DNA from: a virus
Reading direction: 5' to 3' (one strand)
IMG/VR virus record: IMGVR_UViG_3300036770_006330
Length of the DNA stretch: 64,000 bases
Both the position numbers and the translations under genes were made by a program. The notes beneath the pieces are model-generated. The model saw nothing but the letters and a program-made list of their open reading frames with translations, was not told where the DNA came from and ran no database searches. Shown here in pieces: positions 7,263 to 21,463 of this stretch; position 1 is the stretch's first letter; every line of letters starts with the position of its first letter.

Positions 7263-7277
7263 GACGGTGGCGTATGA
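7263..7277 (+). repeat. polar 15-mer copy 4
   Basis: GACGGTGGCGTATGA. Confidence 0.9.
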
Positions 7278-7284
7278 CGGGCAC

Positions 7285-7328
7285 AAAGAAGAAGCCCACC
7301 CACCCCATAACGCAGGGCAGGTGGGCTT
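7285..7328 (-). terminator. intrinsic terminator
   Basis: AAGCCCACC...GGTGGGCTT. Confidence 0.6.
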
Positions 7329-7349
7329 GCTACTTGGGCTAAGCGGTGA

Positions 7350-7763: not shown

Positions 7764-7798
7764 AGATGACCCCCTTGGGTCTGATAGTAGGTAGTTAG

Positions 7799-7853
7799 AT
7801 TTTAGGGGCACTAACGGCATAAGTCAAGAGCCGCAGCCGTGTTCGCCGACACA
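7799..7853 (-). promoter_or_regulatory. SigA-type promoter with CRP-like box
   Basis: TTGACT-N17-TAAAAT; CGTGT-N6-ACACA at 7838-7853. Confidence 0.7.
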
Positions 7854-7949
7854 CACCCAACGCCGCCGTAGGTCGTCGCCCGTCGGCTGTCCCCGCCAAC
7901 CCCCTTCGGCAGTCCCGCCGCCGACGACGCAGATGTCTCGTCTTCTTTT

Positions 7950-7964
7950 GACGGTGGCGGATGA
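7950..7964 (+). repeat. polar 15-mer copy 5
   Basis: GACGGTGGCGGATGA. Confidence 0.9.
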
Positions 7965-8051
7965 CCGATTACGGGCACTAAAAAACCACCCCCACAACCG
8001 AGATTTATCTCAGCGCAGGGGTGGCTTAGAAGTCAGGCTATCGGGGTTTTG

Positions 8052-8546
8052 CTACACCGCAACCTGTGTGAATGGGCAGACTGCCTGCTCTCCGAACACC
8101 TTCTCGTAGAGCCAGCGACCGTTTTGCCAGTCGGTTTCCCAGCCCCCATCTGAACCGATGTCTACGCACGAACCGTAGATGACCTTCGCACGGATGAGAA
8201 CGGCTGTTACGACCGTGTCATAGGGCTTCTGGTTCGTCTTACAGAAGTCAAAGATTTGGTGCTTCTTCTCACGGTCGCCTGCGTAGGCTTTCACCCACCA
8301 CTCGGGCTGTTCGGGTAGTGCTTCCCACGAAAAGGTTTCGTGGTCTTGGTCGTTTAGTTCTTGACCATTGAAGCGAAAGTAGCCTTCGGTGAACTCAGGC
8401 TCCCCTTTCCCATCCCAGCCAGCGATGACTATTCCTTCCAACTTGGCTTGCTCGATGATTTTCTTAGCGTCAAGCGCTAGTTTCCCGAACATCCAAGCCG
8501 ACCCGACATTACGTTTGTCTCGGGTGACGTAGTGCGTGTATCCCAT
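8052..8546 (-). CDS. conserved-looking phage hypothetical protein (MGYTHY...FCKT..KPYD)
   Basis: 164 aa ORF with promoter and SD. Confidence 0.8.
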   Translation of the reverse strand: MGYTHYVTRDKRNVGSAWMFGKLALDAKKIIEQAKLEGIVIAGWDGKGEPEFTEGYFRFNGQELNDQDHETFSWEALPEQPEWWVKAYAGDREKKHQIFDFCKTNQKPYDTVVTAVLIRAKVIYGSCVDIGSDGGWETDWQNGRWLYEKVFGEQAVCPFTQVAV

Positions 8547-8578
8547 TAGGTAGGTATTCCCCTTTCTTGTTGTAAGTC

Positions 8579-8607
8579 AGTCTAGGGGCACTTGGGGTAT
8601 CTGTCAA
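8579..8607 (-). promoter_or_regulatory. SigA-type promoter
   Basis: TTGACA-N17-TAGACT. Confidence 0.75.
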
Positions 8608-8608
8608 A

Positions 8609-8809
8609 CTATCGGATGCGATTTGCTGGGTGGCGTTGCTTGGTCGCAGCCAAAGCATCGCAGTTCAGATGCTCGTAGCCGACCCCCCGCAGGTGCTTCA
8701 CGGGAGTCCCGCCATCCATCTGGCAACCACAGTTCAGGCACGTGGCTTGCTTTGCCAGAACAACGACGACTCCGAGTTTGACTGGGTTATTGGTAATAGT
8801 TAGGTTCAT
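8609..8809 (-). CDS. small zinc-finger-like protein (leaderless)
   Basis: CLNC...HLNC; ATG 6 nt after -10. Confidence 0.65.
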   Translation of the reverse strand: MNLTITNNPVKLGVVVVLAKQATCLNCGCQMDGGTPVKHLRGVGYEHLNCDALAATKQRHPANRIR

Positions 8810-8815
8810 ACAAGC

Positions 8816-8844
8816 AACTTACCCAACACCCATAAAGAAGTCAA
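8816..8844 (-). promoter_or_regulatory. SigA-type promoter
   Basis: TTGACT-N17-TAAGTT. Confidence 0.7.
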
Positions 8845-8948
8845 GTATTTCATCGCTGGCGAAGTTCTTATCGCCGTCGATTTCTCCTACCGGCTTAGTG
8901 CTAATCATTTTTGCGCCGGGGCTTGCGGGTTTCCTGAGTTCTTCTTTT

Positions 8949-8963
8949 GACGGTGGCGGATGA
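8949..8963 (+). repeat. polar 15-mer copy 6
   Basis: GACGGTGGCGGATGA. Confidence 0.9.
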
Positions 8964-9026
8964 CGGGCGTACCCCAGACCACCTACACGGGCTTGACCTG
9001 ACCTACCAAATGGTCACGGGAAATGC

Positions 9027-9055
9027 TTGACTTTCATCCGTGTGGTTCGTAAGTT
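9027..9055 (+). promoter_or_regulatory. SigA-type promoter
   Basis: TTGACT-N17-TAAGTT. Confidence 0.7.
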
Positions 9056-9062
9056 GGAATGT

Positions 9063-9344
9063 ATGCGTACACCTACCTATTATCTTGTCCGTACCTATGT
9101 CCGTGTGATTTTCTGGACTGCTGTCGCCTTCGGGTTGATTTGGCTGGTCAGCACTTCTGTCGGTTCGTGGGATAAATACGAATGTGTAGAAACCAATGTG
9201 GTCGTTCAGCCCTACGACACAATGTGGGCTATCGCAGAGAAATACTGTGACGGCAACATTGAGGTCGCAGTAGCCGATTTGATTTCGGCGCACGGCTCTG
9301 CTACGGTTATCGTTGGGCAAACTATTGAGGTGCGTAATAAGTGA
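9063..9344 (+). CDS. membrane-anchored LysM-domain protein (leaderless)
   Basis: N-terminal TM then VVQPYDTMWAIAEKY...IVGQTIEV. Confidence 0.75.
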   Translation: MRTPTYYLVRTYVRVIFWTAVAFGLIWLVSTSVGSWDKYECVETNVVVQPYDTMWAIAEKYCDGNIEVAVADLISAHGSATVIVGQTIEVRNK

Positions 9345-9742
9345 CCGAACAAGATTTTGATAACAAGCGTTATGGAGTGGTAGAGAGTGTTCGCCCTTCT
9401 TCCGTAATAAAGTGCGACGGTTGCGCCAAAGATGTACCGTGCTTTTCGCAAACAAACCTGCCCGAACACGGCTTCGTGCTTACGCTTGCGTCAATGGACT
9501 ACTACGGTGGGTTCAGCGACTTTTTTGATGACGAGCCACCCAAGTTCCTGCTGTGCCACGACTGTTCGTTGGCACTCATAACTGCTCTGCCGTTGGTCGC
9601 AGAACGCTTACCCCGAGGACTACACCCGTGCGACTTAGATACGCCGTGCTGCGACTATGCGTGGAAATGGATTAGCGACGGACAATGGAAAGACAACAAC
9701 CTTCACTTTGCCAAAGACGGCAAATGGGTTCCTGCTTCGTAA
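9341..9742 (+). CDS. Cys-rich hypothetical protein
   Basis: CDGC, CHDC; GTGA-type overlap with the upstream gene. Confidence 0.65.
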   Translation: MTEQDFDNKRYGVVESVRPSSVIKCDGCAKDVPCFSQTNLPEHGFVLTLASMDYYGGFSDFFDDEPPKFLLCHDCSLALITALPLVAERLPRGLHPCDLDTPCCDYAWKWISDGQWKDNNLHFAKDGKWVPAS

Positions 9743-9797
9743 TGAACAGTATCGCTTTCTCTGTCGTGATTTTTTTGGTGCTGTTCGTTATCTTGCC

Positions 9798-9992
9798 TTA
9801 GTCAAAGAGGCTCATAGCCTGCTCTTTCGGCGGGCTTTCCACGCAGATGCCGTGTGCGTAGCGATACAACTTCTCTACTTGCTTGATACCACCTGTCTTG
9901 CCGACCTTCACCCAGCAAGTGACTTGATGCCAAGTTCCTTCGGCTGTCGGGTCGAGTGGATGTGCGCAGACGACGCAGTTGTAGAGGTTCAT
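9798..9992 (-). CDS. small zinc-finger-like protein (leaderless)
   Basis: CVVC...HGIC; TACTAT -10 6 nt upstream of ATG. Confidence 0.65.
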   Translation of the reverse strand: MNLYNCVVCAHPLDPTAEGTWHQVTCWVKVGKTGGIKQVEKLYRYAHGICVESPPKEQAMSLFD

Positions 9993-10041
9993 ACCCAGAT
10001 AGTATCAGCGGGGCTCCCGCCCCCGCAAGGGGACTTCTTCT

Positions 10042-10056
10042 AACGGTGGCGGATGA
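10042..10056 (+). repeat. polar 15-mer copy 7
   Basis: AACGGTGGCGGATGA. Confidence 0.9.
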
Positions 10057-10070
10057 GTTGGTCGGGGAAT

Positions 10071-10111
10071 AGAAAACGGGCAGGCGCACCATCTCGGCAC
10101 GCCTGCCCGTT
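10071..10111 (-). terminator. intrinsic terminator
   Basis: AACGGGCAGGCG...CGCCTGCCCGTT. Confidence 0.7.
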
Positions 10112-10148
10112 AGGGGGTTTGGGGTGTTGTTGGCGAGATAACTCGCTA

Positions 10149-10574
10149 TTAGTAGACGGTCTCCAAGTCGTCTGCGTTGGCATAGCGCACGGTGTATCCA
10201 CGCCCCATAGGTACGTCGTGGTGTGCGAGGTTCAGGTGAAGCGTGTCTCCGCTAAGCGAATAGCGCAAGCGCCACTCGGCATTGACAGTGACTGCGTGTA
10301 TGAAGTCACGAACTTTATCCGCAACGAAGGTTCCGCCAACTGAGCGGTTCCACAATGGCAGTCCGTCTATCGCCCACACACGCTTACCGTGCGTTGCGAG
10401 TGAAGGGTTGTTATCCCACCACGCTTTGACTGCGTAGTAGAAGTTGTCTACTTGTTCATCCCAACAACTGCCATCGCAGTAGTCAAGTGGTGTGGTTGTG
10501 TCGGTGTCTGGGTCGTAGTTAGCGCACGAACAAACATTCGTGAACTCACCATCCCATTCTGGTTTGTTTGTCAT
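10149..10574 (-). CDS. hypothetical protein (leaderless)
   Basis: MTNKPEWDGEF...HHDVPMG. Confidence 0.75.
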   Translation of the reverse strand: MTNKPEWDGEFTNVCSCANYDPDTDTTTPLDYCDGSCWDEQVDNFYYAVKAWWDNNPSLATHGKRVWAIDGLPLWNRSVGGTFVADKVRDFIHAVTVNAEWRLRYSLSGDTLHLNLAHHDVPMGRGYTVRYANADDLETVY

Positions 10575-10580
10575 ACCACT

Positions 10581-10609
10581 ATTCTGTCGCACTTTTGCCC
10601 CAATGTCAA
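10581..10609 (-). promoter_or_regulatory. SigA-type promoter
   Basis: TTGACA-N17-CAGAAT. Confidence 0.65.
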
Positions 10610-10771
10610 GTGTTTGGTCGCAGGTCACTTGACTTCGTGCCGGCGAGAGGCTCAGTACCGGCGAGCAAGCCGGATGTCTGGTCGAACCGGCGACAGCAAC
10701 CCGACGACGCCGGCTCAACAGGATGCCGCCCTAGGCGGGGCTTCAGACCCGACGGCAACCTGTCTTGTTTT

Positions 10772-10786
10772 GACGGTGGCGTATGA
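10772..10786 (+). repeat. polar 15-mer copy 8
   Basis: GACGGTGGCGTATGA. Confidence 0.9.
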
Positions 10787-10799
10787 GCGTAGATAGCAC

Positions 10800-10834
10800 A
10801 ACGGGCGAGCGCACCCGAAGGTACGCCCGCCCGT
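10800..10834 (-). terminator. terminator-like hairpin
   Basis: ACGGGCG.GCGCACC-CGAA-GGTACGC.CGCCCGT. Confidence 0.65.
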
Positions 10835-10863
10835 AGTCGGGGGGATTTGGGGTTGTTAGGCGA

Positions 10864-11232
10864 CTACTCCCACGATGAGAGGTCTAACACCATTTCGGCT
10901 AGTTGGTCGCAATAGACCATAGGCGTGCGAGCCTCAACGATTTCGGTATTTGCGTCTTTGCCACGCTTTACGAAACGGATACGGCTAACCGTGTAGGTGT
11001 CTGAGAAGTCAAGCACCACCTCAATACGACGGTCGTGCGTAATCGGCAACAGTACGCCGACATTCTCACCTTGTTCATCTTTTAGATAGGCGACACGCCC
11101 GCCCGACACGCCGAGCATCGTCATCATTCCTATTTGGTGTTTGATTTCGTTCACGTCGCAAGGGCGACCTTCACGGATAAGAGAGAGAACAGTCGCCCCT
11201 TGACGACCGCCCCATTTGAGTGTTGTTGTCAT
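10864..11232 (-). CDS. hypothetical protein (leaderless)
   Basis: 122 aa; promoter TTGACA-N17-TACGCT at 11239-11267. Confidence 0.75.
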   Translation of the reverse strand: MTTTLKWGGRQGATVLSLIREGRPCDVNEIKHQIGMMTMLGVSGGRVAYLKDEQGENVGVLLPITHDRRIEVVLDFSDTYTVSRIRFVKRGKDANTEIVEARTPMVYCDQLAEMVLDLSSWE

Positions 11233-11277
11233 AGGTTCAGCGTACCACTTGTACCTCAGACTGTCAAGTGTTGTCGC

Positions 11278-11481
11278 TTAGGCGAAGCGTGGTTCTCCGT
11301 GAGGCGGGCAGTCCGAATAGGGGTTCTCGTTCCCCTCGTTATCTTCACAACCGCACCAACCGAATAGTTCTACCTGAGTTTCGTGCGTCAGTTCTAGTAG
11401 GTCATCATACGAAGGCGACCCACCCAACTCGCTTATGACGATTTTCCAGAAGTCCACGAATAGTTGTTCGCTGTTTGTCAT
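11278..11481 (-). CDS. small acidic Cys-containing protein (leaderless)
   Basis: promoter TTGACA-N17-TAGTAT at 11488-11516. Confidence 0.7.
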   Translation of the reverse strand: MTNSEQLFVDFWKIVISELGGSPSYDDLLELTHETQVELFGWCGCEDNEGNENPYSDCPPHGEPRFA

Positions 11482-11597
11482 ACCTTCATACTAGGCATAA
11501 GTGTCTCAGTTGTCAAGTTTTGGTTGTCCCCTGTTCCCCGCCGTCGTTGGGACAGCAACCCCAACGGGGCTGCCGAACGGCGGGCACTTCTTCTTCT

Positions 11598-11612
11598 AAC
11601 GGTGGCGGATGA
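11598..11612 (+). repeat. polar 15-mer copy 9
   Basis: AACGGTGGCGGATGA. Confidence 0.9.
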
Positions 11613-11623
11613 CTTCACGGGAG

Positions 11624-11666
11624 AAAAGAAAAGGGCGGGCGCACCGAGTTGGTACGCCCGCCCTTT
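11624..11666 (-). terminator. intrinsic terminator
   Basis: AAGGGCGGGCGCACC...GGTACGCCCGCCCTT with A-runs on +. Confidence 0.75.
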
Positions 11667-11689
11667 GGCGGATTACTGAGAGTTAGCGC

Positions 11690-11977
11690 TCAGTTGCGCC
11701 GCGCCTCAAAGGCGAATAGCCCTGCGAAGGGGTTTGGGTATCCGATTACATCATTTGCCCAGCGCTCAGCGTCGCTGTTTTGGGTTTCGCAGTCACGGAA
11801 GCGCTTTGCCGACGATAGGTAGGTAGCCCCATCACGGTCTTTGCGTATCGCAATAGCGAGTGCTTTGGTGATTTGGTCGTAATGAACGGTAATCGTGACT
11901 GTCGTATCGGGTGTACCCCACCCGTCTGCGACAACCCCAGTCACCGTGTATGTCGGTTTCTTTTTGGTGTTTGTCAT
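11690..11977 (-). CDS. hypothetical protein (leaderless)
   Basis: promoter TTGACT-N17-TAACCT at 11984-12012. Confidence 0.7.
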   Translation of the reverse strand: MTNTKKKPTYTVTGVVADGWGTPDTTVTITVHYDQITKALAIAIRKDRDGATYLSSAKRFRDCETQNSDAERWANDVIGYPNPFAGLFAFEARRN

Positions 11978-12336
11978 AGCCTAAGGTTAGCCCACTACTG
12001 CCCCTAAGTCAAGTTTATTGGGTGTGACTTGCGCCGAGGCGTTGGCTTGGTAGGCGACCCTGACGACGGCAAGCCCAGACGACGACATCAGTCCCATCCG
12101 ACAGGTCGGGAGCCCCGCCGGATGGCGGCGGCAACCCCAAAACGCGTTTCTCCTCAGCCGCAGCGCCCGTGTTGTTAGCGTTTTCGCTAACACTTATTTA
12201 GTGCTAAGTCAGCAAACCCTTATTTCACGCCACTCGACTTTTACCGCTTATCGAAGTTCTCGTTCGAGCTGGCGCCGTCGTCGAGCATCTTCTGGTGTCC
12301 CAGCGGGGCTTCGGATGTCCGAACACCTGTTCTTTT

Positions 12337-12351
12337 GACGGTGGTGGATGA
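12337..12351 (+). repeat. polar 15-mer copy 10
   Basis: GACGGTGGTGGATGA. Confidence 0.9.
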
Positions 12352-12360
12352 GAAGGGGGT

Positions 12361-12404
12361 AGAAAGCAGAAAGCCCGCCACCCGATTACTCGGATGACGG
12401 GCTT
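12361..12404 (-). terminator. intrinsic terminator
   Basis: AAGCCCG.CA.CCG...CGG.TG.CGGGCTT. Confidence 0.65.
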
Positions 12405-12418
12405 CTGGATGGGCGTGA

Positions 12419-12850
12419 TTAGAGGCTGACTGTTTCCCGCAGGTACTTGTGCTTCTTGACTAACTTCCAAGTTGTCTTGTCCCCAACTACCTGAGCCTCA
12501 TAGACGCAGAGTTTGTCGTCGGCTAGCAGGTAGAGGAACTGCGCCCAACCGAAGTTCTTGCTCTTGTCGGTAAAGAGGTGCGGTTTATCTTCCTTGTAGG
12601 CGATACCGTACCCATCCACGAGCGAGAAATCGTCGGCATTACCGTGCCACATCTCAGCGAGTTTGGTCTTGCTTGCGTAGATAGATGACCACGCATTTTT
12701 CATCAGGTTCTTGCGAGCCTGTTCCAGACCATCACGCCGTACGAGAAGCAGTAGGTCAGGTACTTTTGCGTCTGGGTATCCATCCCAATGGCAATAGCGA
12801 CCTCGCCAACCGCCCTTGTGAGGCACAGCGATAATGCTACGAGTTGCCAT
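12419..12850 (-). CDS. phage hypothetical protein (YCHWDGYP family)
   Basis: MATRSII...YCHWDGYP motif. Confidence 0.8.
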   Translation of the reverse strand: MATRSIIAVPHKGGWRGRYCHWDGYPDAKVPDLLLLVRRDGLEQARKNLMKNAWSSIYASKTKLAEMWHGNADDFSLVDGYGIAYKEDKPHLFTDKSKNFGWAQFLYLLADDKLCVYEAQVVGDKTTWKLVKKHKYLRETVSL

Positions 12851-13037
12851 TTAGCACCTCGTCTAGCAACTGATAGGTGTCTATGCCCTCAATGAGAGAC
12901 AGGTTAGACCCGCTATCCCATTTCACATTGAGAACACGGTCACCGAAAGCGTCGGTAAATGAACCGACCACCTCGCCCTCATCACCCGCCGTTAGACGGG
13001 TGTAAGGGTCGTAGGTGTGGACTAAGCGGATACGCAC
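12837..13037 (-). CDS. DUF4314-like protein
   Basis: RIRLVHT.DP...G..G.V...D..G....V.WD.GS.LSLI...D pattern. Confidence 0.75.
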   Translation of the reverse strand: MRIRLVHTYDPYTRLTAGDEGEVVGSFTDAFGDRVLNVKWDSGSNLSLIEGIDTYQLLDEVLNGNS

Positions 13038-13039
13038 GG

Positions 13040-13294
13040 CTATTCCCCGCCCTCATTATCCAAGATGAGGTTTGCGAAGAAACACTTGGAAGCGGTGTGT
13101 CCAATGGTGAGGGACATACCGCACACTCCGAGTGTGTCCAGCAAGTTCATAGCCGTCAGTTCGTCAAGGCTTTCCAACTCACGGAGTTTTTCCGTCAGTC
13201 GTTCAGCCATACGCATTTGGATGACCAGCGTTTCTTCTTCATCCTTATTGGCGAAGAAGTCCACCACATCCTGTGGGAACTGTGTGGTGTTCAC
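13040..13294 (-). CDS. hypothetical protein
   Basis: operon-coupled ORF. Confidence 0.65.
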   Translation of the reverse strand: MNTTQFPQDVVDFFANKDEEETLVIQMRMAERLTEKLRELESLDELTAMNLLDTLGVCGMSLTIGHTASKCFFANLILDNEGGE

Positions 13295-13524
13295 TTGATA
13301 CCGTCAAACAGACGGACAGGCTTGACCGACAGCGCAACGCACAGGCGAAGCAGGGTGTCCAGATTTGGCGAGAAGTGGTTGTTCTCAATGCGGTTCACCG
13401 TCTTGCGGTCAATGCCAGCAAGTTCGGCAAGTGCTTGTTGAGAGAGTTCTGCGTCAATGCGGAACTGACGCAAGCGGTCTGCGACCACTTTCTCCTTCTT
13501 GCTCTTGGTTGGTTTGGTTTTCAT
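13291..13524 (-). CDS. XRE/Cro-family helix-turn-helix regulator
   Basis: RLRQFR...LSQQALAELAGIDRKTVNRIEN...P.LDTLLRLC.AL. Confidence 0.9.
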   Translation of the reverse strand: MKTKPTKSKKEKVVADRLRQFRIDAELSQQALAELAGIDRKTVNRIENNHFSPNLDTLLRLCVALSVKPVRLFDGIK

Positions 13525-13560
13525 TGGTTGTTTTCTCCTTGTTTGGTTTGGGTATTACAT

Positions 13561-14136
13561 CTAACAGATTTGGAAACCGCCACAGGCTTTCAGGAAGTTG
13601 GCGAACTCACGGATGTTGGCAAGATTTATGGAGTAGTTGGCTTCATTGGGTTCTGTTTCACCCTTGCCATTACATCCATTACAAGTCTGAGAGATTTCGG
13701 TCTCGTCTTTCTTGATGGGCAACTTCTTGTATTTCGGAAGTTTCTGCCCGTCACCCACGATGTCTGCCATTATGTCGTAGTCGTATGGGTTGCGAGTTTC
13801 GCCCGTCTTGGTGTTTTTGTACCAAAGGCGCATACCTGTCGCCATACAATGCGAACACTTGCGCTTTGGCAGAGACTTGATGTAGTCGTTGCGCTCTTTG
13901 ATGTATTGCTTTGCCGTGCCGTCTTTGAGCGAAGCGAGCAGACGCTTCCCCAACTCCTCGCTATCCCAGCCATCCAAGCCGTCGCCGTCGTTTGAGTGGG
14001 CGTTCTTTACCTTGTCGCAGATTTCAGGTGCGACAGCCGAGCAGTAGTCCCACAAGGGATGCCACCACCAAATGTTGTTGCGGAAGTATTCGCCACGCTC
14101 GCTCGTCGGGTTTTGCCCGTACACATCCATTCCCAT
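13561..14136 (-). CDS. phage hypothetical protein with CxxCxGxG zinc finger
   Basis: YFRNNIWWWHPLW; CSHC / CNGCNGKG; promoter TTGACG-N17-TAACTT at 14169-14197. Confidence 0.8.
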   Translation of the reverse strand: MGMDVYGQNPTSERGEYFRNNIWWWHPLWDYCSAVAPEICDKVKNAHSNDGDGLDGWDSEELGKRLLASLKDGTAKQYIKERNDYIKSLPKRKCSHCMATGMRLWYKNTKTGETRNPYDYDIMADIVGDGQKLPKYKKLPIKKDETEISQTCNGCNGKGETEPNEANYSINLANIREFANFLKACGGFQIC

Positions 14137-14328
14137 AGTTATTCACTCCTCGTTAGTAGGTGTACCACAAGTTATCCGCTATTTACGCTTTCGTCAAGTC
14201 TTTCTGGGTGGCTTCTGGCACAGCCCACTTTGGGTATCGCCAGCGTTCGCCGTCGTTCACGCCGGTTCGCCGGTTTGCGCCACCAGCCGTATCAGCCGGG
14301 GCTTCGGGGTTGGCGCACATCTTCTTAC

Positions 14329-14343
14329 GACGGTGGCGTATGA
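14329..14343 (+). repeat. polar 15-mer copy 11
   Basis: GACGGTGGCGTATGA. Confidence 0.9.
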
Positions 14344-14384
14344 GATGGGGTACGACCCAACACACATCAGTTTCCAGACAGCAC

Positions 14385-14421
14385 AAAGGGGCTGGCATAC
14401 CCGAAGGTACACCAGCCCCTT
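14385..14421 (-). terminator. intrinsic terminator
   Basis: AAGGGGCTGG..TACC-CGAA-GGTA..CCAGCCCCTT. Confidence 0.7.
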
Positions 14422-14441
14422 GTGGGTGGGTTTTTGGGGGG

Positions 14442-14933
14442 TTAGTTGCCCTTGGCGAGCATTGAGCGAAGCGTCTGACGGAGAGCGTCGGCAAGAGTTC
14501 CCTTTGCCTGCCCGAAGTCAAGTACGGGTTCGTCATCACCTTGGAAACGAACTGACGAAACCATTTGGTTCGTCTTGGTTGCGAGCGTGGTTAGACGGAC
14601 ACGCTTGCGCTGTGGGTGCTGTGACGGTTGGCAGTTGTTTCCGTCATTGGGGCTAGCCCAACCGACTGTCTCGCAGACAAGAGCCACTTCGTTTTCAGCC
14701 AGCGTGTGAGTACGGGCAACATTTGCCAGACCTACATACACATCTGGGTATGCGTCTAGGTGACGAACGAAACCGTCTGCCGACAGAGCGAACATCTGAG
14801 CAGACATACGCTCAAACTCGTCTAGTTTCTTGACGGTTGCCAACTCTTGTAGTGCCTTCTCTGCCGAAGTCACCAAGCGTTCTAGGTCTTGGTGGTTCAG
14901 GCGTTTCTTTTCTGTTATTGGTTTCTTAGCCAC
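14442..14933 (-). CDS. hypothetical protein
   Basis: GTG start with GAAGGGA SD; promoter TTGACT-N17-TACCTT at 14964-14992. Confidence 0.75.
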   Translation of the reverse strand: MAKKPITEKKRLNHQDLERLVTSAEKALQELATVKKLDEFERMSAQMFALSADGFVRHLDAYPDVYVGLANVARTHTLAENEVALVCETVGWASPNDGNNCQPSQHPQRKRVRLTTLATKTNQMVSSVRFQGDDEPVLDFGQAKGTLADALRQTLRSMLAKGN

Positions 14934-15155
14934 TATTGCTTCCCTTCTGTGAGTGGTACTTACAAGGTACAGGTAGTAGCCACGCAAGTCAAGTTTCTTC
15001 GTGTGACTTGCGACAACGAGCGTTTAGGCAGACCTAACAAGCAGACCCAACGAATAGCACCTGCGCCAAACCTGCCCCACGCCGTCTGGGACACGACGAC
15101 GGCGACATCACGGGTCGCACCACCGGGGCTTCGGGGCGACCCGTGTTCTTCTTGT

Positions 15156-15170
15156 GACGGTGGCGTATGA
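15156..15170 (+). repeat. polar 15-mer copy 12
   Basis: GACGGTGGCGTATGA. Confidence 0.9.
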
Positions 15171-15187
15171 CCCGTTCGTGGGTACGA

Positions 15188-15222
15188 GAAAGGGGCGCAC
15201 CCCCTTTCGGGAGTACGCCCCT
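15188..15222 (-). terminator. intrinsic terminator
   Basis: AGGGGCG.AC.CCC-TTTC-GGG.GT.CGCCCCT. Confidence 0.65.
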
Positions 15223-15241
15223 GTTGGCTGGTTGCTATCGG

Positions 15242-15601
15242 TTATTCGCCGTTGAGCAAGCCAGAAATGTCGTCGGGTACGCCTTCTTTGGCGACCAAGA
15301 GAGCGTTCGCCGTGACGCTGTATTTGCGAACCATCTTGCTGATGTATTCCTGCTTCGCTTTATCGTCGCCGTGAAGCATTATCGCTCGGGCTTCGTCTAG
15401 TAGTTGCTCTTGGGTGACTTCGCCCTTGTCCACCATTTGCTCTAAGGCTGTGATGAGTTCTCGGGCGATTACTGCGCTGTAAGTGCGAGCCATAAAGTCA
15501 CGCACACGCTCGGGCATTTCCCCGTCGCCCTGTGTTGCTTCCCACACTTCTAGAAATGTAGGTATCGGGTTGTTCTTGTTCGTTTTGGGTGTCCACTCCA
15601 T
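15242..15601 (-). CDS. hypothetical protein
   Basis: AGGAG SD. Confidence 0.75.
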   Translation of the reverse strand: MEWTPKTNKNNPIPTFLEVWEATQGDGEMPERVRDFMARTYSAVIARELITALEQMVDKGEVTQEQLLDEARAIMLHGDDKAKQEYISKMVRKYSVTANALLVAKEGVPDDISGLLNGE

Positions 15602-15612
15602 TGTTGTTCTCC

Positions 15613-16260
15613 TTAGTTGTGCTTGGACATCTCAACCATTTGGCAGTATTTCACGAAAGCGTGAAACACATCTGGCACACGACCTTGCTGTGGCTCGGTT
15701 GCGTCGTAGTGAAACACATCTGCGTCATCTTCATACACAGGTAGTCCGTTGTCGCCGTACTTGTAGAACTGCGACATAGTTGCGCTTTCGCCTGTCCACG
15801 CAAAGGCTGTGGCGATAAGACCTTCTTCCACATTTGAGAGTGGATTTTCGTGGAAGTCTTTTTCTAGCGCACCACGCTCGTAGTCGCCGTCTTGGGTAAG
15901 TTTGGCGAGTTCCTTCTTTCCTTCTTCGTTGTTGCTCAGACGACGAGCGAAACCTTCCACAACGAACATCAGGAAGCGAAACTTGGTAAGACCACTCTCA
16001 CCCAAGTCGTTGAGCATTTTTGGCAAGGCATCTACGGGGTGGTCGCCATTGGAGAGACACATCTCTATTACCTGCCCACCAAGACCTTCGTTGCCTTCGT
16101 CGTCTTTGATTTCCAGCCCAACGACAACCATTGGGTTCAGGTCTGTGTGTCCTTTGTTTTCTTCACACGCTGACGACTTCATACCCTTCGTCAGTTCCAT
16201 TGTGGAACGGAGTGCGTGTTCCAAGAGTTCCTTCTCGGACATACCTTCTAGGTCTGGCAT
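15613..16260 (-). CDS. hypothetical protein
   Basis: 215 aa; AAGGAG SD; promoter TTGACG-N18-TACACT at 16292-16321. Confidence 0.8.
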   Translation of the reverse strand: MPDLEGMSEKELLEHALRSTMELTKGMKSSACEENKGHTDLNPMVVVGLEIKDDEGNEGLGGQVIEMCLSNGDHPVDALPKMLNDLGESGLTKFRFLMFVVEGFARRLSNNEEGKKELAKLTQDGDYERGALEKDFHENPLSNVEEGLIATAFAWTGESATMSQFYKYGDNGLPVYEDDADVFHYDATEPQQGRVPDVFHAFVKYCQMVEMSKHN

Positions 16261-16324
16261 TAGTGATACTCCTTGCTTGTAGGTACTACTGAGTGTAGGG
16301 GGTACAGGGTACAGTCGTCAAGGG

Positions 16325-16594
16325 CTATTCGTCACCCAAGAGATTTCGCAAGTCGGTGTCTAGGTTCTGGGCTTCGTCTTTGGCTACTTGTTCTTCCCAC
16401 TCGGCTATGCCCTTGTCGGTGTGCTTATTCAGCATTTCAGCCACTTCCAGCAGGCTTGCTATGTCCTGTTCCTTGTATTCATAGTCACGGCGCATAAGCG
16501 TCACCAGACGGTCTGAAATGGCTTTGTGGACTTCACACATCTGCTGAAAGGTGAGAGTGATAGTTCCTGTGTAGTTGCTCGGTTCGTGTTCCAT
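16325..16594 (-). CDS. hypothetical protein
   Basis: MEHEPSNY... acidic helical protein. Confidence 0.65.
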   Translation of the reverse strand: MEHEPSNYTGTITLTFQQMCEVHKAISDRLVTLMRRDYEYKEQDIASLLEVAEMLNKHTDKGIAEWEEQVAKDEAQNLDTDLRNLLGDE

Positions 16595-16732
16595 ACCCGT
16601 ACTACGCACGATTTCCAGAAAGTGTGATGCCCGTAGCAAGAAGTTTCCGACGGCACAGCGAACTGCGCCAGCCACCAGAAGGTCGGTAGCCCCGTGCGCC
16701 ATCTTCGCCAGCCGGGGCTTCGGTCTTGTTGC

Positions 16733-16747
16733 GACGGTGGCGTATGA
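16733..16747 (+). repeat. polar 15-mer copy 13
   Basis: GACGGTGGCGTATGA. Confidence 0.9.
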
Positions 16748-16791
16748 CCCGACGAGAGCGACGGGGGCAGTCGGCTGGCATAATGGTTGCT

Positions 16792-16947
16792 ATGGGAGAG
16801 CGAAAGATACGAGCCAAGTGGCTAGACGGAGAGCGTCAGGCGTTCGCAGACGGCTTGCGCTACCGTGCCGTGCGCTTCCAAGACCGTAGGAAGCAGACAG
16901 CCAAATACCTGTGCCGTCGCCAACCACGCTTCCCCGAAGGCGAGTGA
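16792..16947 (+). CDS. small basic hypothetical protein (probably leaderless)
   Basis: CATAAT 7 nt before ATG. Confidence 0.5.
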   Translation: MGERKIRAKWLDGERQAFADGLRYRAVRFQDRRKQTAKYLCRRQPRFPEGE

Positions 16948-16997
16948 CGCAGTTCACACGACAAAGACTTGACGAAGGCTATTGTCGCCTGTACGGT
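16943..16997 (+). promoter_or_regulatory. CRP-like box plus SigA-type promoter
   Basis: AGTGA-N6-TCACA (16943-16958), 10 nt, then TTGACG-N17-TACGGT. Confidence 0.7.
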
Positions 16998-17035
16998 ACA
17001 GAGTGCCATACACACCTACTAGGAAGGACTAGATA

Positions 17036-17446
17036 ATGGCACTATCACCAGAACAAACAGCCCGTCTGTTTCTGAACGCTCGTCAGGCGTTTATGGAAGC
17101 AGAGAAGGCAAAGAAGGAAGCCGAAACGGAACTCCGTAAGGCTCTCGCAACTCTCGGCGTGAACGAAATCGTCGTTGAGGGTCACTCTGTCCAAATCGTT
17201 GATGTGGTGAACACCACCTACGACGCAGACAAGTTGGCGCAAGTCGTCAAGCCAGCCGTGTTCCGTAAGGTCACGAAGTCCGTCGTGGACAAGGACTTGA
17301 TGAAGTCGGCACTCGCCGTCGGTCTTATTGACCAACTCACGGCTGATGAAGTGTCCACCGTGAAACCCACGACGCAGGTGCGTGTGTACGCACTCTCGCC
17401 AGAGGCAAAGAAGTCGCAACAGAACGAAGTCGCAAAGTCGGCGTAG
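17036..17446 (+). CDS. hypothetical coiled-coil protein
   Basis: AGGA SD; 136 aa. Confidence 0.8.
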   Translation: MALSPEQTARLFLNARQAFMEAEKAKKEAETELRKALATLGVNEIVVEGHSVQIVDVVNTTYDADKLAQVVKPAVFRKVTKSVVDKDLMKSALAVGLIDQLTADEVSTVKPTTQVRVYALSPEAKKSQQNEVAKSA

Positions 17447-17567
17447 TTCGGGGGCGAAGGACTGTTCGCTCGTTCACAAGTAGTGACCTAACTGTTTGCG
17501 AGCGAGTGAACGGTCAGGGTGGGGTCTGTCTCGTAGAGAAGGGGCAGACACCCACCCACCGAAATAC

Positions 17568-17596
17568 TTGCGTTGTGATAACGCAGTCGCTACTAT
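17568..17596 (+). promoter_or_regulatory. SigA-type promoter
   Basis: TTGCGT-N17-TACTAT. Confidence 0.65.
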
Positions 17597-17640
17597 CAGT
17601 AATACCTACTAACTACTACCTACGAAAGAAGGAAGCAACA

Positions 17641-18381
17641 ATGGCTCGCACAGCGACCAAGAACCAAGAACTGCCGAAATGTTGGCAGACCGTCAAAGAC
17701 GCACTTGACGCAGGTATTGACCGTGTAATCCTGTTTGGAACAGCAGGTGTCGGCAAGACCTACGCAGGTCTGAACTACGGCGAACTCACAGGTGGGGCGC
17801 ACCGTCTTATCTGTACCGACGAAATGACCAACGCAGATGTGACGGGTTGCTGGCAACCCACAGCGTCGGGTTCGTGGTCGTGGCTGGAAGGCGCAGGTAT
17901 CAAGGCGTGGAAAGGCAACGGCAAAGTCGGTGGTCGTCTGGTCATTGACGAGATAGACAAGGCAGGTGGTGATGTGTTCGCCACGCTTCTCGCTATCACG
18001 GACAGCCCAGAGAGCGCACAATGGGAACACCCCCAGACCAAGAAAGTCATCAAGCCGTTGGAAGGCTTCTCTGTCGTGATGACGACGAACATTGAGGAAA
18101 TGTCTGACCTGCCAATGGCACTCAAAGACCGTTTCCCTGTCGCTATCCGTATCAACGAGCCACACCCAGAGGCTCTGTTGCGTATGAGCGAGGACTTGCG
18201 TGACTACGCAAAGGTGATGTGTGACGCTGGTGAGCGTCGTATCTCACTCCGTTCGTTCTACGCATACGACAAGTTGCGTAATGCTCTTGGCGCAAAGAAA
18301 GCCGCCGAGATGGTGTTCGGCAACCGTGCCAAGTCGTTCCTTGACGCTATCCAAGTGGATACAGGCAAGAAAGTCGTCTGA
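17641..18381 (+). CDS. MoxR/CbbQ/CobS-like AAA+ ATPase
   Basis: Walker A GTAGVGKT, Walker B LVIDEID, sensor TTN, ALKDRF. Confidence 0.88.
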   Translation: MARTATKNQELPKCWQTVKDALDAGIDRVILFGTAGVGKTYAGLNYGELTGGAHRLICTDEMTNADVTGCWQPTASGSWSWLEGAGIKAWKGNGKVGGRLVIDEIDKAGGDVFATLLAITDSPESAQWEHPQTKKVIKPLEGFSVVMTTNIEEMSDLPMALKDRFPVAIRINEPHPEALLRMSEDLRDYAKVMCDAGERRISLRSFYAYDKLRNALGAKKAAEMVFGNRAKSFLDAIQVDTGKKVV

Positions 18382-19985
18382 TGTCCACAAAGGTCAAAGA
18401 GAACTCTGGCTACAAAGTCGTGGGGGTCACAACCCCCACGCAAGTAGTTCCAGACGCAGAAATGCTGAACCGTGACGACTTGGAGAGTGGGCGTTGGGTT
18501 ATTCACTCAACCACAAACTCTGGTGACGAAATCGGTCTGGACACAGACGCTCGCACAATGTTCGTTCCGACATACGACGACGAACTCTCTCGCCACTTGC
18601 GAGCGCAACAGATGTTCTACGCCAAGTGTTCGCCAACTCCGAAACAATGGAACAAGTTGTGGGCGAAGCGTGGCTACGCAAGCACTCGCACCATTACTGC
18701 CTGTGAGCAACTCCGTATCACGACGCTGATGATGAACGCTGGCTTTGAGCCACACAAGAACTTACAGCGTGGTTCGGAAATGCTTGACGGCTTCACAATG
18801 GCTACTCACAACGACTTTCAGGCAGTTGTATTGGGTGCTATCTCCTGCCATAACACGCAAGGCGAGCAAGCGTTCCTTGACGGAGTGAAAGCAGTCCACC
18901 CCGAGTGGATAGAACCACTCGTCACTATCACCACGCAAGCAACCGACTTCTACAACGCCGTTGAGAAACACAACAAGCAAGCACTCAAAGACGAGTGTGC
19001 GTGGCGTTGTATTCCACCACTCAACGCAACGGGTACAAATGTTCGTACTCACGGCTTTGGCTACACAGAGCAACTCGCTAAGTGGGTGGAGAACATCATT
19101 GGCGCACTCACCGACGAGGGAAAGTCTCAGCCGAAACTTGGCAAGCCAGAGCAGACCCAAGACAAAGAAGGCGAGGGCGAAGGCGAGGGCGAAAGCAAGA
19201 GCGACAAGGACAAAGACGGTGAAGGCTTGTCCAAGAGCGAACTACGCAAACTCTTGCGTGGTATCAAAGAGAGTGCCAAAGAGAAACAGGCTTGGCATCA
19301 CGGAACAGTACCCACTAAGGGCGTGAAGCAAATGTGGGGAGAGTTGCGTATCTCCAAGCCAGCACTCACCAAGCACCTTATGGGTGCTATTGGCAAGAAG
19401 CGTGTTGCGTCGCAGACAGGTCGCAACCCACGCCGTATGTCTCGCTTGCTCACAGACCCAGAGCGTCGTATCTTTGACCGTACCGTGCGTGGGGCAGGTG
19501 GAGTGGTACTCGTAGATACGAGTGGCTCTATGTCTCTCTCTGAGGAACAGGTCAAGCAAATCGTTATCCACGCACCGTCAGCACTTGTGGCGCAGTATTC
19601 GGGTGGCTCTCGTATTCGCCCGAACCTGTATGTAATCGCCAACAAGGGTCGTATGGTGGACAAGTTGCCACGCCCGAACGGTTCTAACGAGGTGGACTTT
19701 CCAGCGTTGGAGTGGGCTATCAAGCAACGCCAACGCCCGAACTCGCCTGTTATCTGGGTATCAGACGGTGGAGTGACGGGTCGTGGCGACAACTGCCACG
19801 ACGACCTAACAATGGCGTGTATTCGTCTGTGTAAGAAAGAAGGCGTGTATGTCGTGCCAGACCCAGACACGGCGATAGTCCTACTCAAACGCTTACAGCG
19901 TGGCGAGAAGGTGACGAGCGTTGTACCCGACACTCTCAAAGAAACCTACAAAGAGGCAACAGGTCAAGAACTCGTACTCCGTTAG
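18381..19985 (+). CDS. vWA-domain protein (CobT-like partner of the AAA+ ATPase)
   Basis: MIDAS DTSGS, later VSDG; acidic EGEGEGE linker; translationally coupled. Confidence 0.82.
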   Translation: MSTKVKENSGYKVVGVTTPTQVVPDAEMLNRDDLESGRWVIHSTTNSGDEIGLDTDARTMFVPTYDDELSRHLRAQQMFYAKCSPTPKQWNKLWAKRGYASTRTITACEQLRITTLMMNAGFEPHKNLQRGSEMLDGFTMATHNDFQAVVLGAISCHNTQGEQAFLDGVKAVHPEWIEPLVTITTQATDFYNAVEKHNKQALKDECAWRCIPPLNATGTNVRTHGFGYTEQLAKWVENIIGALTDEGKSQPKLGKPEQTQDKEGEGEGEGESKSDKDKDGEGLSKSELRKLLRGIKESAKEKQAWHHGTVPTKGVKQMWGELRISKPALTKHLMGAIGKKRVASQTGRNPRRMSRLLTDPERRIFDRTVRGAGGVVLVDTSGSMSLSEEQVKQIVIHAPSALVAQYSGGSRIRPNLYVIANKGRMVDKLPRPNGSNEVDFPALEWAIKQRQRPNSPVIWVSDGGVTGRGDNCHDDLTMACIRLCKKEGVYVVPDPDTAIVLLKRLQRGEKVTSVVPDTLKETYKEATGQELVLR

Positions 19986-19996
19986 GAGTGCGAAGG

Positions 19997-20040
19997 TGGG
20001 CTGGTCTGGTCAAATCACGCTTCCTTGCCAGACCAGCCCA
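19997..20040. terminator. 13-bp inverted repeat after the vWA gene
   Basis: TGGGCTGGTCTGG...CCAGACCAGCCCA. Confidence 0.6.
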
Positions 20041-20109
20041 CAGAAACACGCAATAGGAAGCGATTACAGACGAGTTAGAGAAGCGTCGGCTACCTAGATA
20101 GGGGGGCAA

Positions 20110-20247
20110 ATGAGCGACGACAAGTGCCACAACTGCCAGACAACAAACCCAGACGACGACATACAAGAAGGTCTGTGCGCTGAGTGCTTCCGTGACTTGC
20201 CAGAAGGCGAGTGGCACACAGCAGGTACTTGGGGGAAAGCGAAATGA
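20110..20247 (+). CDS. 45-aa CxxC...CxxC zinc-ribbon protein (not in ORF track)
   Basis: MSDDKCHNC...LCAECF; ATGA overlap with the next ORF. Confidence 0.6.
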   Translation: MSDDKCHNCQTTNPDDDIQEGLCAECFRDLPEGEWHTAGTWGKAK

Positions 20248-20393
20248 GCGACACATCATCTGAGCAAACGCTCACGCCAGAGGAACGCAAGGAACTGAAA
20301 GAACAGTTGGAATACGCACTCGCACAACCAGAAGGAACGCTACAACGACTTCTGGGGGAGTTGTTGGTGAAACTCAACCCACCCATTGAGTAG
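20244..20393 (+). CDS. small hypothetical protein
   Basis: MSDTSSEQ... Confidence 0.6.
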   Translation: MSDTSSEQTLTPEERKELKEQLEYALAQPEGTLQRLLGELLVKLNPPIE

Positions 20394-20405
20394 TGCTAAC
20401 TGTTT

Positions 20406-20420
20406 GACGGTGGCGTATGA
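20406..20420 (+). repeat. polar 15-mer copy 14
   Basis: GACGGTGGCGTATGA. Confidence 0.9.
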
Positions 20421-20421
20421 C

Positions 20422-20670
20422 CTATCGCTTGCTCATTAGGTTCTTGTCGTAGAACCTAACAAACAGAAAGATGTATCCGAGAAGCAAGCAGTAGCGATAC
20501 GAGATAATGTCGTCTATGACTTGCTCGTATCTCAGTATGAGAAGGGCTAACCACAAGCCAAAGCCATAGACGAAGCCCGACGCTAGAAAGCCCAACACGC
20601 CAGCCAAGACAAGGCTGGTTGTTGTTGGTGGCTTTTCTTTCGGTGTTGTCTTTGGAAACTGATTAGGCAT
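20422..20670 (-). CDS. small two-TM membrane protein
   Basis: two hydrophobic segments. Confidence 0.65.
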   Translation of the reverse strand: MPNQFPKTTPKEKPPTTTSLVLAGVLGFLASGFVYGFGLWLALLILRYEQVIDDIISYRYCLLLGYIFLFVRFYDKNLMSKR

Positions 20671-21052
20671 TGGTCATCTGTGGCTTGCGAACACGACGCA
20701 AGATTTGATGAACACGCTGGCGAGACAGTCCGTACTCGTCGGCAATACTTTGGAGTGAGCGACCTGCTTCTCTCGCGTTTAGCATTGCTTCATCTCGCTG
20801 TGCGTCGCCCATAGGTCCCGGCTTACACGGCCCCCAAGACCAACCGGAGAACTTCTCCAACTCGATTTGGCGTTCGCTCGACAGACTTCCAGCACGGTAT
20901 TTCACTCGGAGATAACTCACCCACGAACCAAGCGAAACAACAGTTCCATCAACGGCGACTTTCGCTGCCGCAGGAACTCTTGCGTGTCCGTGCTGTGAAG
21001 TGAACAACTCCAAAGCCTTTATGTTTCTTGCCCATTTTTCTGAGGTTCTCAT
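20663..21052 (-). CDS. helicase-associated (HA)-domain plus sigma70-region-4-like HTH protein
   Basis: W...L..F...HGH.RVP...LGSWV...R...L..ER...L...GWSW followed by G.SLQSIADEYGLSRQRVHQI. Confidence 0.8.
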   Translation of the reverse strand: MRTSEKWARNIKALELFTSQHGHARVPAAAKVAVDGTVVSLGSWVSYLRVKYRAGSLSSERQIELEKFSGWSWGPCKPGPMGDAQRDEAMLNAREAGRSLQSIADEYGLSRQRVHQILRRVRKPQMTNA

Positions 21053-21148
21053 AGTCAAGAGGCTAATACAGATTTGGCTGCTGCGGCGGAAGCTCGAGGG
21101 ACATCTGGCAGTCCCGTTCCGGACTCGAGTGAACACGGGGCTTTTACT

Positions 21149-21163
21149 GACGGTGGCGGATGA
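21149..21163 (+). repeat. polar 15-mer copy 15
   Basis: GACGGTGGCGGATGA. Confidence 0.9.
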
Positions 21164-21250
21164 CATCCGGTGGGACGCCGGTTTCTGGTCGAGCACGGGT
21201 TGCGAAATCGACTTAGCCCCTGTACTGTTCACCCCACAAGGAGAAGGAAC

Positions 21251-21463
21251 ATGAAGACATACACCAAAGAAGACATCCAGAAAATGAAGGCAAATCCCAA
21301 GGAGTTGGTCGGCACTCGTGGTCTTATGGACTGCGGTGAACTCACTGTTGGGGTGCACATCAAGGACACACGGGTTCGGTTCGGTCACATCGACTTGCTG
21401 GTCACGCCTCTCGCAGGTGCGGGCGAAGTCTGGGTGGAAAAACACCGTGTCACTCCTGCGTGA
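21251..21463 (+). CDS. hypothetical protein
   Basis: AAGGA SD; promoter TTGCGA-N17-TACTGT at 21200-21228. Confidence 0.7.
   Translation: MKTYTKEDIQKMKANPKELVGTRGLMDCGELTVGVHIKDTRVRFGHIDLLVTPLAGAGEVWVEKHRVTPA

Follow-up and report, generated by a model that had tools for sequence, protein, structure and literature searches.

Why should one stretch of a phage genome be nearly free of short palindromes, whereas the DNA on both sides of it is full of them? The question is raised by IMG/VR record IMGVR_UViG_3300036770_006330, of which we analysed 64,000 nt (the window, by which we mean this whole stretch of DNA). The window stems from an uncultured freshwater tailed phage of about 160 kb, and the initial annotation had flagged positions 12352–20800 as nearly devoid of 4-bp palindromes. 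The depleted zone turned out to be larger, covering ~16.4 kb from ~4342 to 20773, and what it displays is a regional, graded avoidance of the sites of many restriction enzymes in an early block of genes, which is real, very strong and conserved. We know of no earlier account of such a graded pattern. As a rule, restriction avoidance is measured over whole genomes and turns out modest, whereas here it is regional, near absolute and concerns about 30 words together, which implies that restriction bears very strongly and very broadly on a single delimited stretch. The zone and its borders are as follows:

4342–20773, no strand: whole depleted zone; the 13 avoided 4-bp palindromes drop from ~40–55 per kb outside to 0–14 per kb inside, falling toward the right edge.
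12352–20773, no strand: zone core, with 0 copies of 11 of the 16 4-bp palindromes and with 61 of the 64 6-bp palindromes absent.
4342–12351, no strand: graded left part, in which AATT, ATAT, TATA, TTAA and GATC are still at 0.
20774–20878, no strand: abrupt right edge, six sites in 105 nt, preceded by an almost empty 8 kb.
20663–21445, minus strand: open reading frame (ORF) with a helicase-associated (HA) domain and a sigma-70 region-4/Mor-type helix-turn-helix (HTH), crossed by the right edge.
4342–4598, minus strand: left edge; the first codons of the SNF2-helicase frame (ORF 2562–4598) lie inside the zone, and the last site at normal density is at 4341.

How complete is the loss, and which words does it concern? 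Counts for the core were taken over 12352–20800 (8449 nt, GC 0.54), with expectations from a dinucleotide model. Six of the seven words that had been listed as missing (TCGA, GGCC, AGCT, TGCA, CATG and AATT) indeed have no copy, whereas the seventh, CGCG, occurs once, at 20774. ACGT, ATAT, TATA, TTAA and GATC, which had not been mentioned, are absent as well, and 7–48 copies would be expected of each of these 11 words. CCGG is found five times, at 14262, 14270, 14296, 15123 and 16712, and the earlier statement that it is restricted to five spacer positions was correct, as was the statement that three words are tolerated: CTAG (16 copies), GCGC (27) and GTAC (34) are near expectation. When all 136 strand-merged 4-mers are ranked by the ratio of observed to expected copies (O/E), the bottom 13 are exactly 13 of the 16 palindromes; the AciI-type word CCGC/GCGG follows in 14th and the MnlI-type word CCTC/GAGG in 18th place from the bottom.

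The avoidance extends to longer and interrupted palindromes. GANTC (0 observed, 34 expected), GGNCC (0, 29) and TTNAA (0, 31) are missing from the core, and GCNGC (1, 41) and CCNGG (3, 29) are nearly so. Sixteen 5-mer pairs are absent from both strands; nine of them are palindromes centred on W or S (CASTG, TGWCA, GCWGC, GASTC, TTSAA, GGWCC, GTWAC, CCWGG and GAWTC), and one further pair is ACTGG/CCAGT, a BsrI-type site. All 64 6-bp palindromes pooled occur only 4 times in the core, against 118 expected. Even the tolerated words are affected by their flanks: only 4 of the 77 CTAG, GTAC and GCGC copies in the zone are flanked into a 6-bp palindrome (about 19 expected), whereas outside the zone the corresponding numbers are 82 observed and 77 expected.

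Among all 256 tetramers, AAAA is the sole non-palindromic one that is absent from the core. A general avoidance of tetramers made only of A and T was considered and rejected, as only the four palindromes and plus-strand AAAA are absent, and most of the others (AAAT, ATTA, TATT, TTAT and ATTT) are at expectation. As a separate observation, AAAA is missing on the plus strand across 12140–21280 (0 copies, about 19–30 expected), and TTTT is also absent in 18–20 kb; the absence of AAAA is not common to the complete relative G001 described below and is lineage-specific.

Could the depletion be a by-product of the proteins encoded or of codon usage? Codons were permuted among synonyms inside each gene, a codon-preserving shuffle of the kind that the initial annotation had asked for. 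The core coding sequence (7.3 kb) contains 0 sites, whereas 243 ± 12.7 are expected, and codon usage is therefore not the cause. The coding sequence at 4.6–12.35 kb holds 26 sites instead of 164 ± 10, which bears out the claim that the coding sequence at 4.7–12.3 kb is depleted too, including its TCGA exceptions at 7750, 8452 and 9952. Control coding sequence (26 kb) has 1012 sites with 1232 ± 26 expected, and the three tolerated words show no depletion (61, with 69.5 expected). In sense-oriented genes, every dinucleotide and trinucleotide is present, and the only tetramers missing are the 13 palindromes named above and TTTT. The absence of the palindromic words is strand-symmetric, and together with the complete set of 2-mers and 3-mers this argues against a cause at the RNA level or a short modification context.

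The depletion is not uniform along the zone. From 4 kb to 20 kb, the 13 words are found 22, 28, 8, 9, 7, 4, 1 and 0 times per 2 kb, and in the left part ACGT, TCGA, CCGG and CGCG return, chiefly within the spacers between cassettes. This gradient is nested, as the stretch without sites that begins at the abrupt right edge differs in length from word to word, between 2.5 and 17 kb: leftward from that edge, it measures about 17 kb for AATT, ATAT, TATA and TTAA, about 14 kb for CATG, TGCA and GGCC, 8.5–9.6 kb for ACGT, AGCT, TCGA and CGCG, 4 kb for CCGG and 2.5 kb for CCGC/GCGG. Outside the zone, the mean spacing of these words is only 120–500 nt. The right edge itself cuts the ORF 20663–21445 (minus strand) near codon 215.

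Is the zone a peculiarity of a single phage? Relatives were collected by an IMG/VR scan for the motif described further below, which yielded many contigs, and in a GATC-free family with several co-oriented motif copies the palindromes drop sharply where the motif array starts. One relative, G001, is a 160,282-nt record rated complete, and it has a single depleted zone that is syntenic with that of the window. Its counts per 2 kb are 28, 19, 11, 8, 8, 4 and 0, followed by 66 and 131, and its right edge cuts the counterpart of ORF 20663–21445 at the identical codon. In G002, a more distant 170-kb relative, the right edge comes within about 300 nt of that gene. AciI-type CCGC/GCGG declines stepwise toward the right edge in the window and in G001 alike. 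The place of the zone is thus conserved; the word list shifts:

G001: keeps CATG and TGWCA, and is without most other words avoided in the window.
L077, the nearest relative: keeps CATG, and is without most other 4-bp words avoided in the window.
G002: keeps AATT, ATAT, CATG and TGCA; lacks ACGT, AGCT, CCGG, CGCG, GGCC, TCGA and TTAA.
L095: keeps AATT, ATAT and TATA; lacks CATG.
All lineages: keep CTAG, GCGC and GTAC.

The window and L077 share 84% identity over 7.8 kb, and this comparison captures the loss of one word in place: all 13 CATG sites of L077 that lie opposite window positions 8959–11213 are changed in the window, each by a different substitution. Selection by a changing set of host restriction enzymes predicts just this combination of a constant location and a variable vocabulary, which excludes an import of the genes from another pool. 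GATC behaves differently from the other words, with 0 copies in all 64 kb of the window and 0 copies in the 160 kb of G001; it is also missing from some 30 related contigs and retained in the L009/L046 lineage. Two further observations on the relatives may be added. The first 4000 nt of G002 (the contig start, left of the helicase) form a second stretch nearly without AGCT, CATG, CCGG, CGCG, GGCC, TGCA and TTAA, which has no counterpart in the window. The contig ends of G001 map into window positions 41000–47500, a low-GC glycosyltransferase region; as this segment is hypervariable, assemblies of the clade break there and their maps are permuted.

The zone also stands out by its promoters. Host-type promoters were located by pattern search, and 15 were found in 4400–21200 (16.8 kb), as opposed to 8 in the other 47 kb:

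4850–16997, both strands: host-type promoters TTGACN-N16-18-TANNNT.
4879, 6547, 6821, 7827, 8607, 8844, 11267, 11516, 12012, 14197, 14992 and 16321, minus strand: 12 of the 15 promoters.
8778, 9027 and 16969, plus strand: 3 of the 15 promoters.

One further promoter of the TTGACN type lies just right of the zone, at 21485 on the plus strand. Where compared, the promoters are located a few tens of nucleotides upstream of conserved starts. They obey the restricted vocabulary of the zone, with −10 boxes such as TAGTAT, TACGCT, TAACCT, TAACTT or TACACT and never TATAAT; the −35 boxes of the core are TTGACG or TTGACT and never TTGACA, because TGACA is forbidden there. Genes, the conserved frames of which were defined by tblastn against the related contigs, run leftward from 16.7 to 4.6 kb and rightward from 16.7 to 20 kb. 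The block is an early region for the host polymerase.

What, then, has removed the sites? The proposal that selection acts against restriction words in a block exposed early in infection has gained from our analysis, as the depletion is specific for palindromes and strand-symmetric, includes the non-palindromic sites CCGC, CCTC and ACTGG, varies in its word set between lineages and coincides with dense host-type promoters. We infer that restriction enzymes are the selective agent, and with moderate confidence we propose that the early block has been purged of Type II sites because it is naked before counter-measures of the phage are in place, the rest of the genome being protected otherwise, likely by later entry. 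The region 4342–20773 would then be transcribed early by the host RNA polymerase and would consist of small self-contained cassettes plus a pair of genes for a MoxR-like AAA+ ATPase and a VWA-motif protein. Silent as well as replacement changes would have been selected, clearing the block of nearly the whole Type II vocabulary (13 of the 16 4-bp palindromes, the majority of the interrupted 5-bp ones, almost every 6-bp one and several asymmetric words), as its DNA would lie naked in the host cell until the counter-measures work. As the rest of the genome has normal site counts (GATC excepted), it must be protected in some other way, and most likely it would enter or become accessible later, once early proteins neutralise restriction.

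The nested gradient points to an exposure that is highest at the right edge and declines leftward. A leading end, or the boundary of a terminal repeat, could lie at about 20.8 kb, from where the DNA would be drawn in leftward and protection would build up meanwhile; such entry may be driven by a polymerase, as by the host polymerase for T7, and 12 of the 15 promoters point leftward. By analogy with T5 and T7 (PMC12455610; 10.1101/866236), it is plausible that the zone is the first-injected DNA, and both the nested gradient and an edge that breaks off abruptly within a gene point the same way. The order and the direction of entry are our guess. A distinctly unlikely extension of this reading is that the first-entering terminal segment serves as an expression platform invisible to essentially the whole Type II repertoire of a diverse host population and that the run lengths form a sequence-encoded clock of internalisation, in which the site-free run of each word (2.5–17 kb) would record the time for which that stretch is unprotected during a slow, polymerase-driven entry. 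On this extension, the self-contained cassettes of terminator, motif, spacer and promoter may allow early expression to survive cuts in the spacers.

Several findings weigh against the proposed early exposure of a first-entering block. A physical end at the right edge, which falls within a conserved gene, would need a terminal repeat, and motif copies and plus-strand genes carry on to the right of the edge at normal site density. The contigs of the relatives are permuted relative to one another, with the IMG/VR class given as linear. CTAG, GCGC and GTAC are tolerated in every lineage. The TCGA and CCGG clusters in spacers, which are conserved in L077, can still be cut by a Type II enzyme, and protection is therefore incomplete unless something shields these stretches or the matching enzymes are uncommon. 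Moreover, no protein of the Ocr or ArdA family was found by Pfam among 20 early ORFs. If the proposal is true, whatever protects the other 145 kb should have its gene in the block, nearly all genes of which are without a known family. It would also follow that the first-exposed DNA of an uncultured phage and its direction can be read from sequence alone, and that the restriction enzymes circulating in the hosts have left their mark in the word lists of the lineages (CATG, TGWCA, AATT and others).

A protection of the remaining genome by base modification was considered as well. In the two complete relatives G001 and G002, no C5, N6/N4 or D12 methyltransferase, TGT/DpdA or ThyA-like enzyme was detected (PF00145, PF01555, PF02086, PF01702 and PF00303). 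Other modification routes are possible, by a 3′-phosphoadenosine-5′-phosphosulfate (PAPS)-reductase-like gene or by glycosyltransferases. PAPS-reductase-like genes are suspected of DNA modification; one such gene (phrog_2302) lies just outside the zone, at 365–1492.

Another reading lets the whole genome enter together, with most of it shielded, for example by co-ejected capsid proteins or in a compartment, and the early block bare for RNA polymerase, so that exposure follows transcription and not the order of entry. The zone does coincide with the cluster of host-type promoters, its least purged parts are spacers upstream of promoters, and the relatives encode very large head-module proteins (2026–3915 aa) that are possibly ejected. 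However, the edges ignore transcription units, as they cut the gene with the HTH and the helicase gene, a smooth 16-kb gradient nested word by word would not be expected from transcription that is on or off, and no DNA-coating protein has been identified. On balance, we regard an exposure that follows transcription as unlikely.

The phage could also avoid sites of its own enzymes: if nucleases that it brings along or makes quickly destroy the host DNA, then any phage DNA in the cell by then has to be free of their sites, a proposal that Davison reportedly made for T5 A1. The complete absence of GATC from the window and from G001 would fit, as a single phage nuclease could suffice for it, and G001 has a giant head protein with an HNH-like stretch and another one with an exonuclease-like stretch. 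For ~30 words, the set of which shifts between close relatives, a varied repertoire of host enzymes fits far better, and scans of the early ORFs against Pfam and PHROG identified no gene for a restriction-type nuclease in the zone. Self-avoidance is thus quite improbable as the cause of the zone.

It is very improbable that the gradient merely reflects gene age, such that the block is equally exposed throughout and the left cassettes are recent arrivals that are still unpurged. The left genes are indeed less widely kept, many of them only in L077, and the AAA+, VWA and Xre genes of the right part are present in all relatives; however, G001 shows the same monotonic gradient with partly different cassettes, and CCGC/GCGG declines stepwise in both genomes. 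A cause other than restriction, be it acquired cargo (the earlier idea of genes from a differently protected pool), a constraint at the RNA level such as escape from RNases, or the context of a base modification, is scarcely credible and largely refuted by the symmetric absence with all 2-mers and 3-mers present, by orthologues in the relatives that have normal or otherwise different site loads, by edges that cut genes, by CATG sites purged in situ, and by spacer RNAs without significant structure (z −0.03 to −1.3 in six spacers).

How does the zone compare with known systems? One similar case is the first-step-transfer DNA of T5 (the left terminal repeat), which likewise combines small early genes, host-type promoters and a local deficit of palindromes. 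The deficit is mild in T5, with 4-bp palindromes at an O/E of about 0.5–1.0 and 136 6-bp palindromes instead of 212 expected, whereas the zone has 4 instead of 118, has lost 11 four-base words entirely and is graded. The pre-early block of T5 has its known location in a terminal repeat and a two-step entry with an injection stop; in the zone, the abrupt edge at 20774–20878 and the gradient are at most a hint of such an entry. The 534-aa and 136-aa proteins of the zone showed no similarity to T5 A1/A2 in BLASTP (E 0.94 and no alignment). T5 and phages of the Autographiviridae are sensitive to restriction only via sites in the DNA that enters first (PMC12455610; 10.1101/866236), and in T7-like phages recognition motifs count only in the early-injected part (PMC12455610). 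As in the zone, the host promoters of T7-like phages (Autographiviridae) point mostly in one direction, away from the presumed leading end. The differences are that the study of T7-like phages (PMC12455610) concerns a single Type I system with few motifs, whereas the zone concerns about 30 Type II-like words, that neither Ocr nor ArdA was detected among the zone ORFs, and that the genome is about four times larger. A T7-type RNA polymerase and sigma region 2 were not found in the relatives either, in a polymerase search that had no positive control.

With genome-wide palindrome avoidance, which Sharp in 1986 and Rocha in 2001 reportedly described in phages, the zone shares the under-representation of Type II palindromes via silent changes, and in the window GATC is avoided genome-wide. 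In the zone, by contrast, avoidance is regional, sharply bounded, graded and near total for most words. Its cassettes resemble the promoter-early stem-loop (PeSL) cassettes that Arbiol, Comeau and Krisch are said to have reported in 2010 for T4-type phages, in which small early ORFs are strung together, each flanked by a stem-loop terminator and an early promoter; the zone differs in that a co-oriented 24-nt motif and a 100–130-nt spacer are added between terminator and promoter. We know of no link between PeSL cassettes and a depletion of restriction sites. Restriction-site avoidance is also the subject of Rusinov 2018, in so far as it is cited in PMC12455610.

The spacers deserve a closer look, as they are where the sites return. 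The motif and the clusters of sites beside it are:

5089–16751, plus strand: motif TCTTCTTTTGACGGTGGCGKATGA, 13 co-oriented copies, the array within the zone.
5650–5692, no strand: spacer cluster with TCGA three times and CCGG three times in a GCTCGAAGCCGG repeat; 5 of the 6 sites are kept in L077.
7174–7225, no strand: spacer cluster of TCGA, AGCT, GGCC and CCGG (10 sites), in the sole spacer over its composition expectation.
10640–10713, no strand: spacer cluster with CCGG five times and TCGA once, upstream of a promoter at 10609–10581.
12234–12284, no strand: spacer cluster with TCGA four times and AGCT once, all kept in L077.
14262–16715, no strand: the last avoided 4-bp palindromes within 12285–20773, the five CCGG copies listed above.

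The 15-mer motif belongs to a longer element of 24 nt, of which the window has 21 co-oriented copies; in the zone, its ACGGTGG starts at 5099, 5737, 6619, 7264, 7951, 8950, 10043, 10773, 11599, 12338, 14330, 15157 and 16734. For ACGGTGG[CT]G, all 21 copies are on the plus strand, at 5099–26393 and 60862. Read along the minus strand, most in-zone copies follow one order, with a stem-loop terminator, the motif, a conserved AGCCCCG box, the 100–130-nt spacer and a host-type promoter. Right of 21.1 kb, where conserved genes are on the plus strand, the motif is found 3–85 nt ahead of their start codons, so that it must be something other than a plain minus-strand promoter; there, a TTAGCGATACTAC-type box on the minus strand follows the motif in place of the AGCCCCG box.

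In a meta-profile of 65 motif copies from the window and nine relatives, site density is 1–8 per kb throughout the zone except 25–125 nt downstream of the motif, where it reaches 17–38 per kb, about the norm of the genome. The spacer clusters that had been reported at 7174–7222, 10640–10710 and 12234–12281 are real, but the enrichment that had been claimed with them is not: the 125 nt adjoining the 13 motif copies hold 38 sites, with 79 expected from dinucleotide shuffles. Four of the 13 spacers are free of sites, and only the one at 7264 is above its own expectation (11 versus 7). The spacers are thus a partial refuge, not enriched and merely less purged. A role as decoys or as landing pads for a methyltransferase, which the initial annotation had offered, does not agree with a site load of half the composition expectation, with core spacers that retain CCGG alone, or with the lack of a detectable methyltransferase in the two complete relatives.

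Why are sites kept in the spacers at all? The CCGG copies at 14296, 15123 and 16712 lie inside a conserved AAGCCCCGG box beside a motif copy, and about three in four spacer sites are kept in L077, somewhat more than the spacer identity of 72–87% predicts. The conserved sites probably belong to functional sequence. The words CTCGA, GCCGG and GGGACATC recur in the spacers, and GGGACATC or its complement GATGTCCC, along with CTCGA repeats, is seen beside the motif at 4542–4579, 5700–5720, 7200–7215, 12300–12320 and 21090–21108; these words may be binding sites of a regulator.

Which genes does the zone carry? Those with a recognisable feature are:

17506–18381, plus strand: MoxR-like AAA+ ATPase (Pfam AAA_5), kept in all relatives and located where the purge is most thorough.
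18381–19985, plus strand: its partner, a protein of 534 aa with a DxSxS metal site of the VWA type (GGVVLVDTSGSMS), in the same most purged part.
13291–13524, minus strand: Xre-type HTH protein of 77 aa, found at 16 loci and among the most widely kept small genes of the zone.
15613–16260, minus strand: acidic early protein of 215 aa (isoelectric point, pI, 4.6), the second gene past the leftward promoter region at 16.7 kb.

The MoxR-like AAA+ and VWA-motif genes at 17506–19985 form a CobS/CobT-like pair that is kept in all relatives; the 534-aa protein has no meaningful match to solved structures. Scans of 20 early ORFs against Pfam and PHROG gave only the Xre-type HTH and DUF4314 above the Pfam thresholds, and weak PHROG matches were all to families of unknown function. 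With megablast, the zone had no match in phage and plasmid collections. In the window as a whole, tail-fibre genes (50–64 kb), seven tRNA genes, the SNF2 helicase (2562–4598, minus strand), an endolysin-like gene and glycosyltransferases were recognised. For helicase, phosphoesterase and terminase, the most similar proteins belong to actinobacterial phages (31–44% identity), with Gordonia and Brevibacterium phages nearest for the terminase (about 43%).

In G001, giant head-module ORFs of 2026, 2129 and 3915 aa occupy 68284–98422. The 3915-aa ORF contains a D5-like/HNH-like stretch and the 2026-aa ORF a DNA-polymerase-exonuclease-like stretch, and these proteins may be ejected with the DNA.

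The 215-aa protein was examined as a candidate DNA mimic. Its predicted model is confident (predicted local distance difference test, pLDDT, 87), Foldseek found nothing in the PDB at E ≤ 0.001, and VIA-align reached a maximal Z of 6.5 for a pilin-like alpha+beta arrangement; the model has no clear fold match from which a function could be inferred, and a mimic of an unfamiliar kind is conceivable. The first three genes past the leftward start (15242–16702) all encode acidic proteins of pI 4.6–4.9, and a single ORF of 342–367 aa in L100 and G001 seems to be a fusion of the homologues of the 215-aa protein and of a 119-aa protein.

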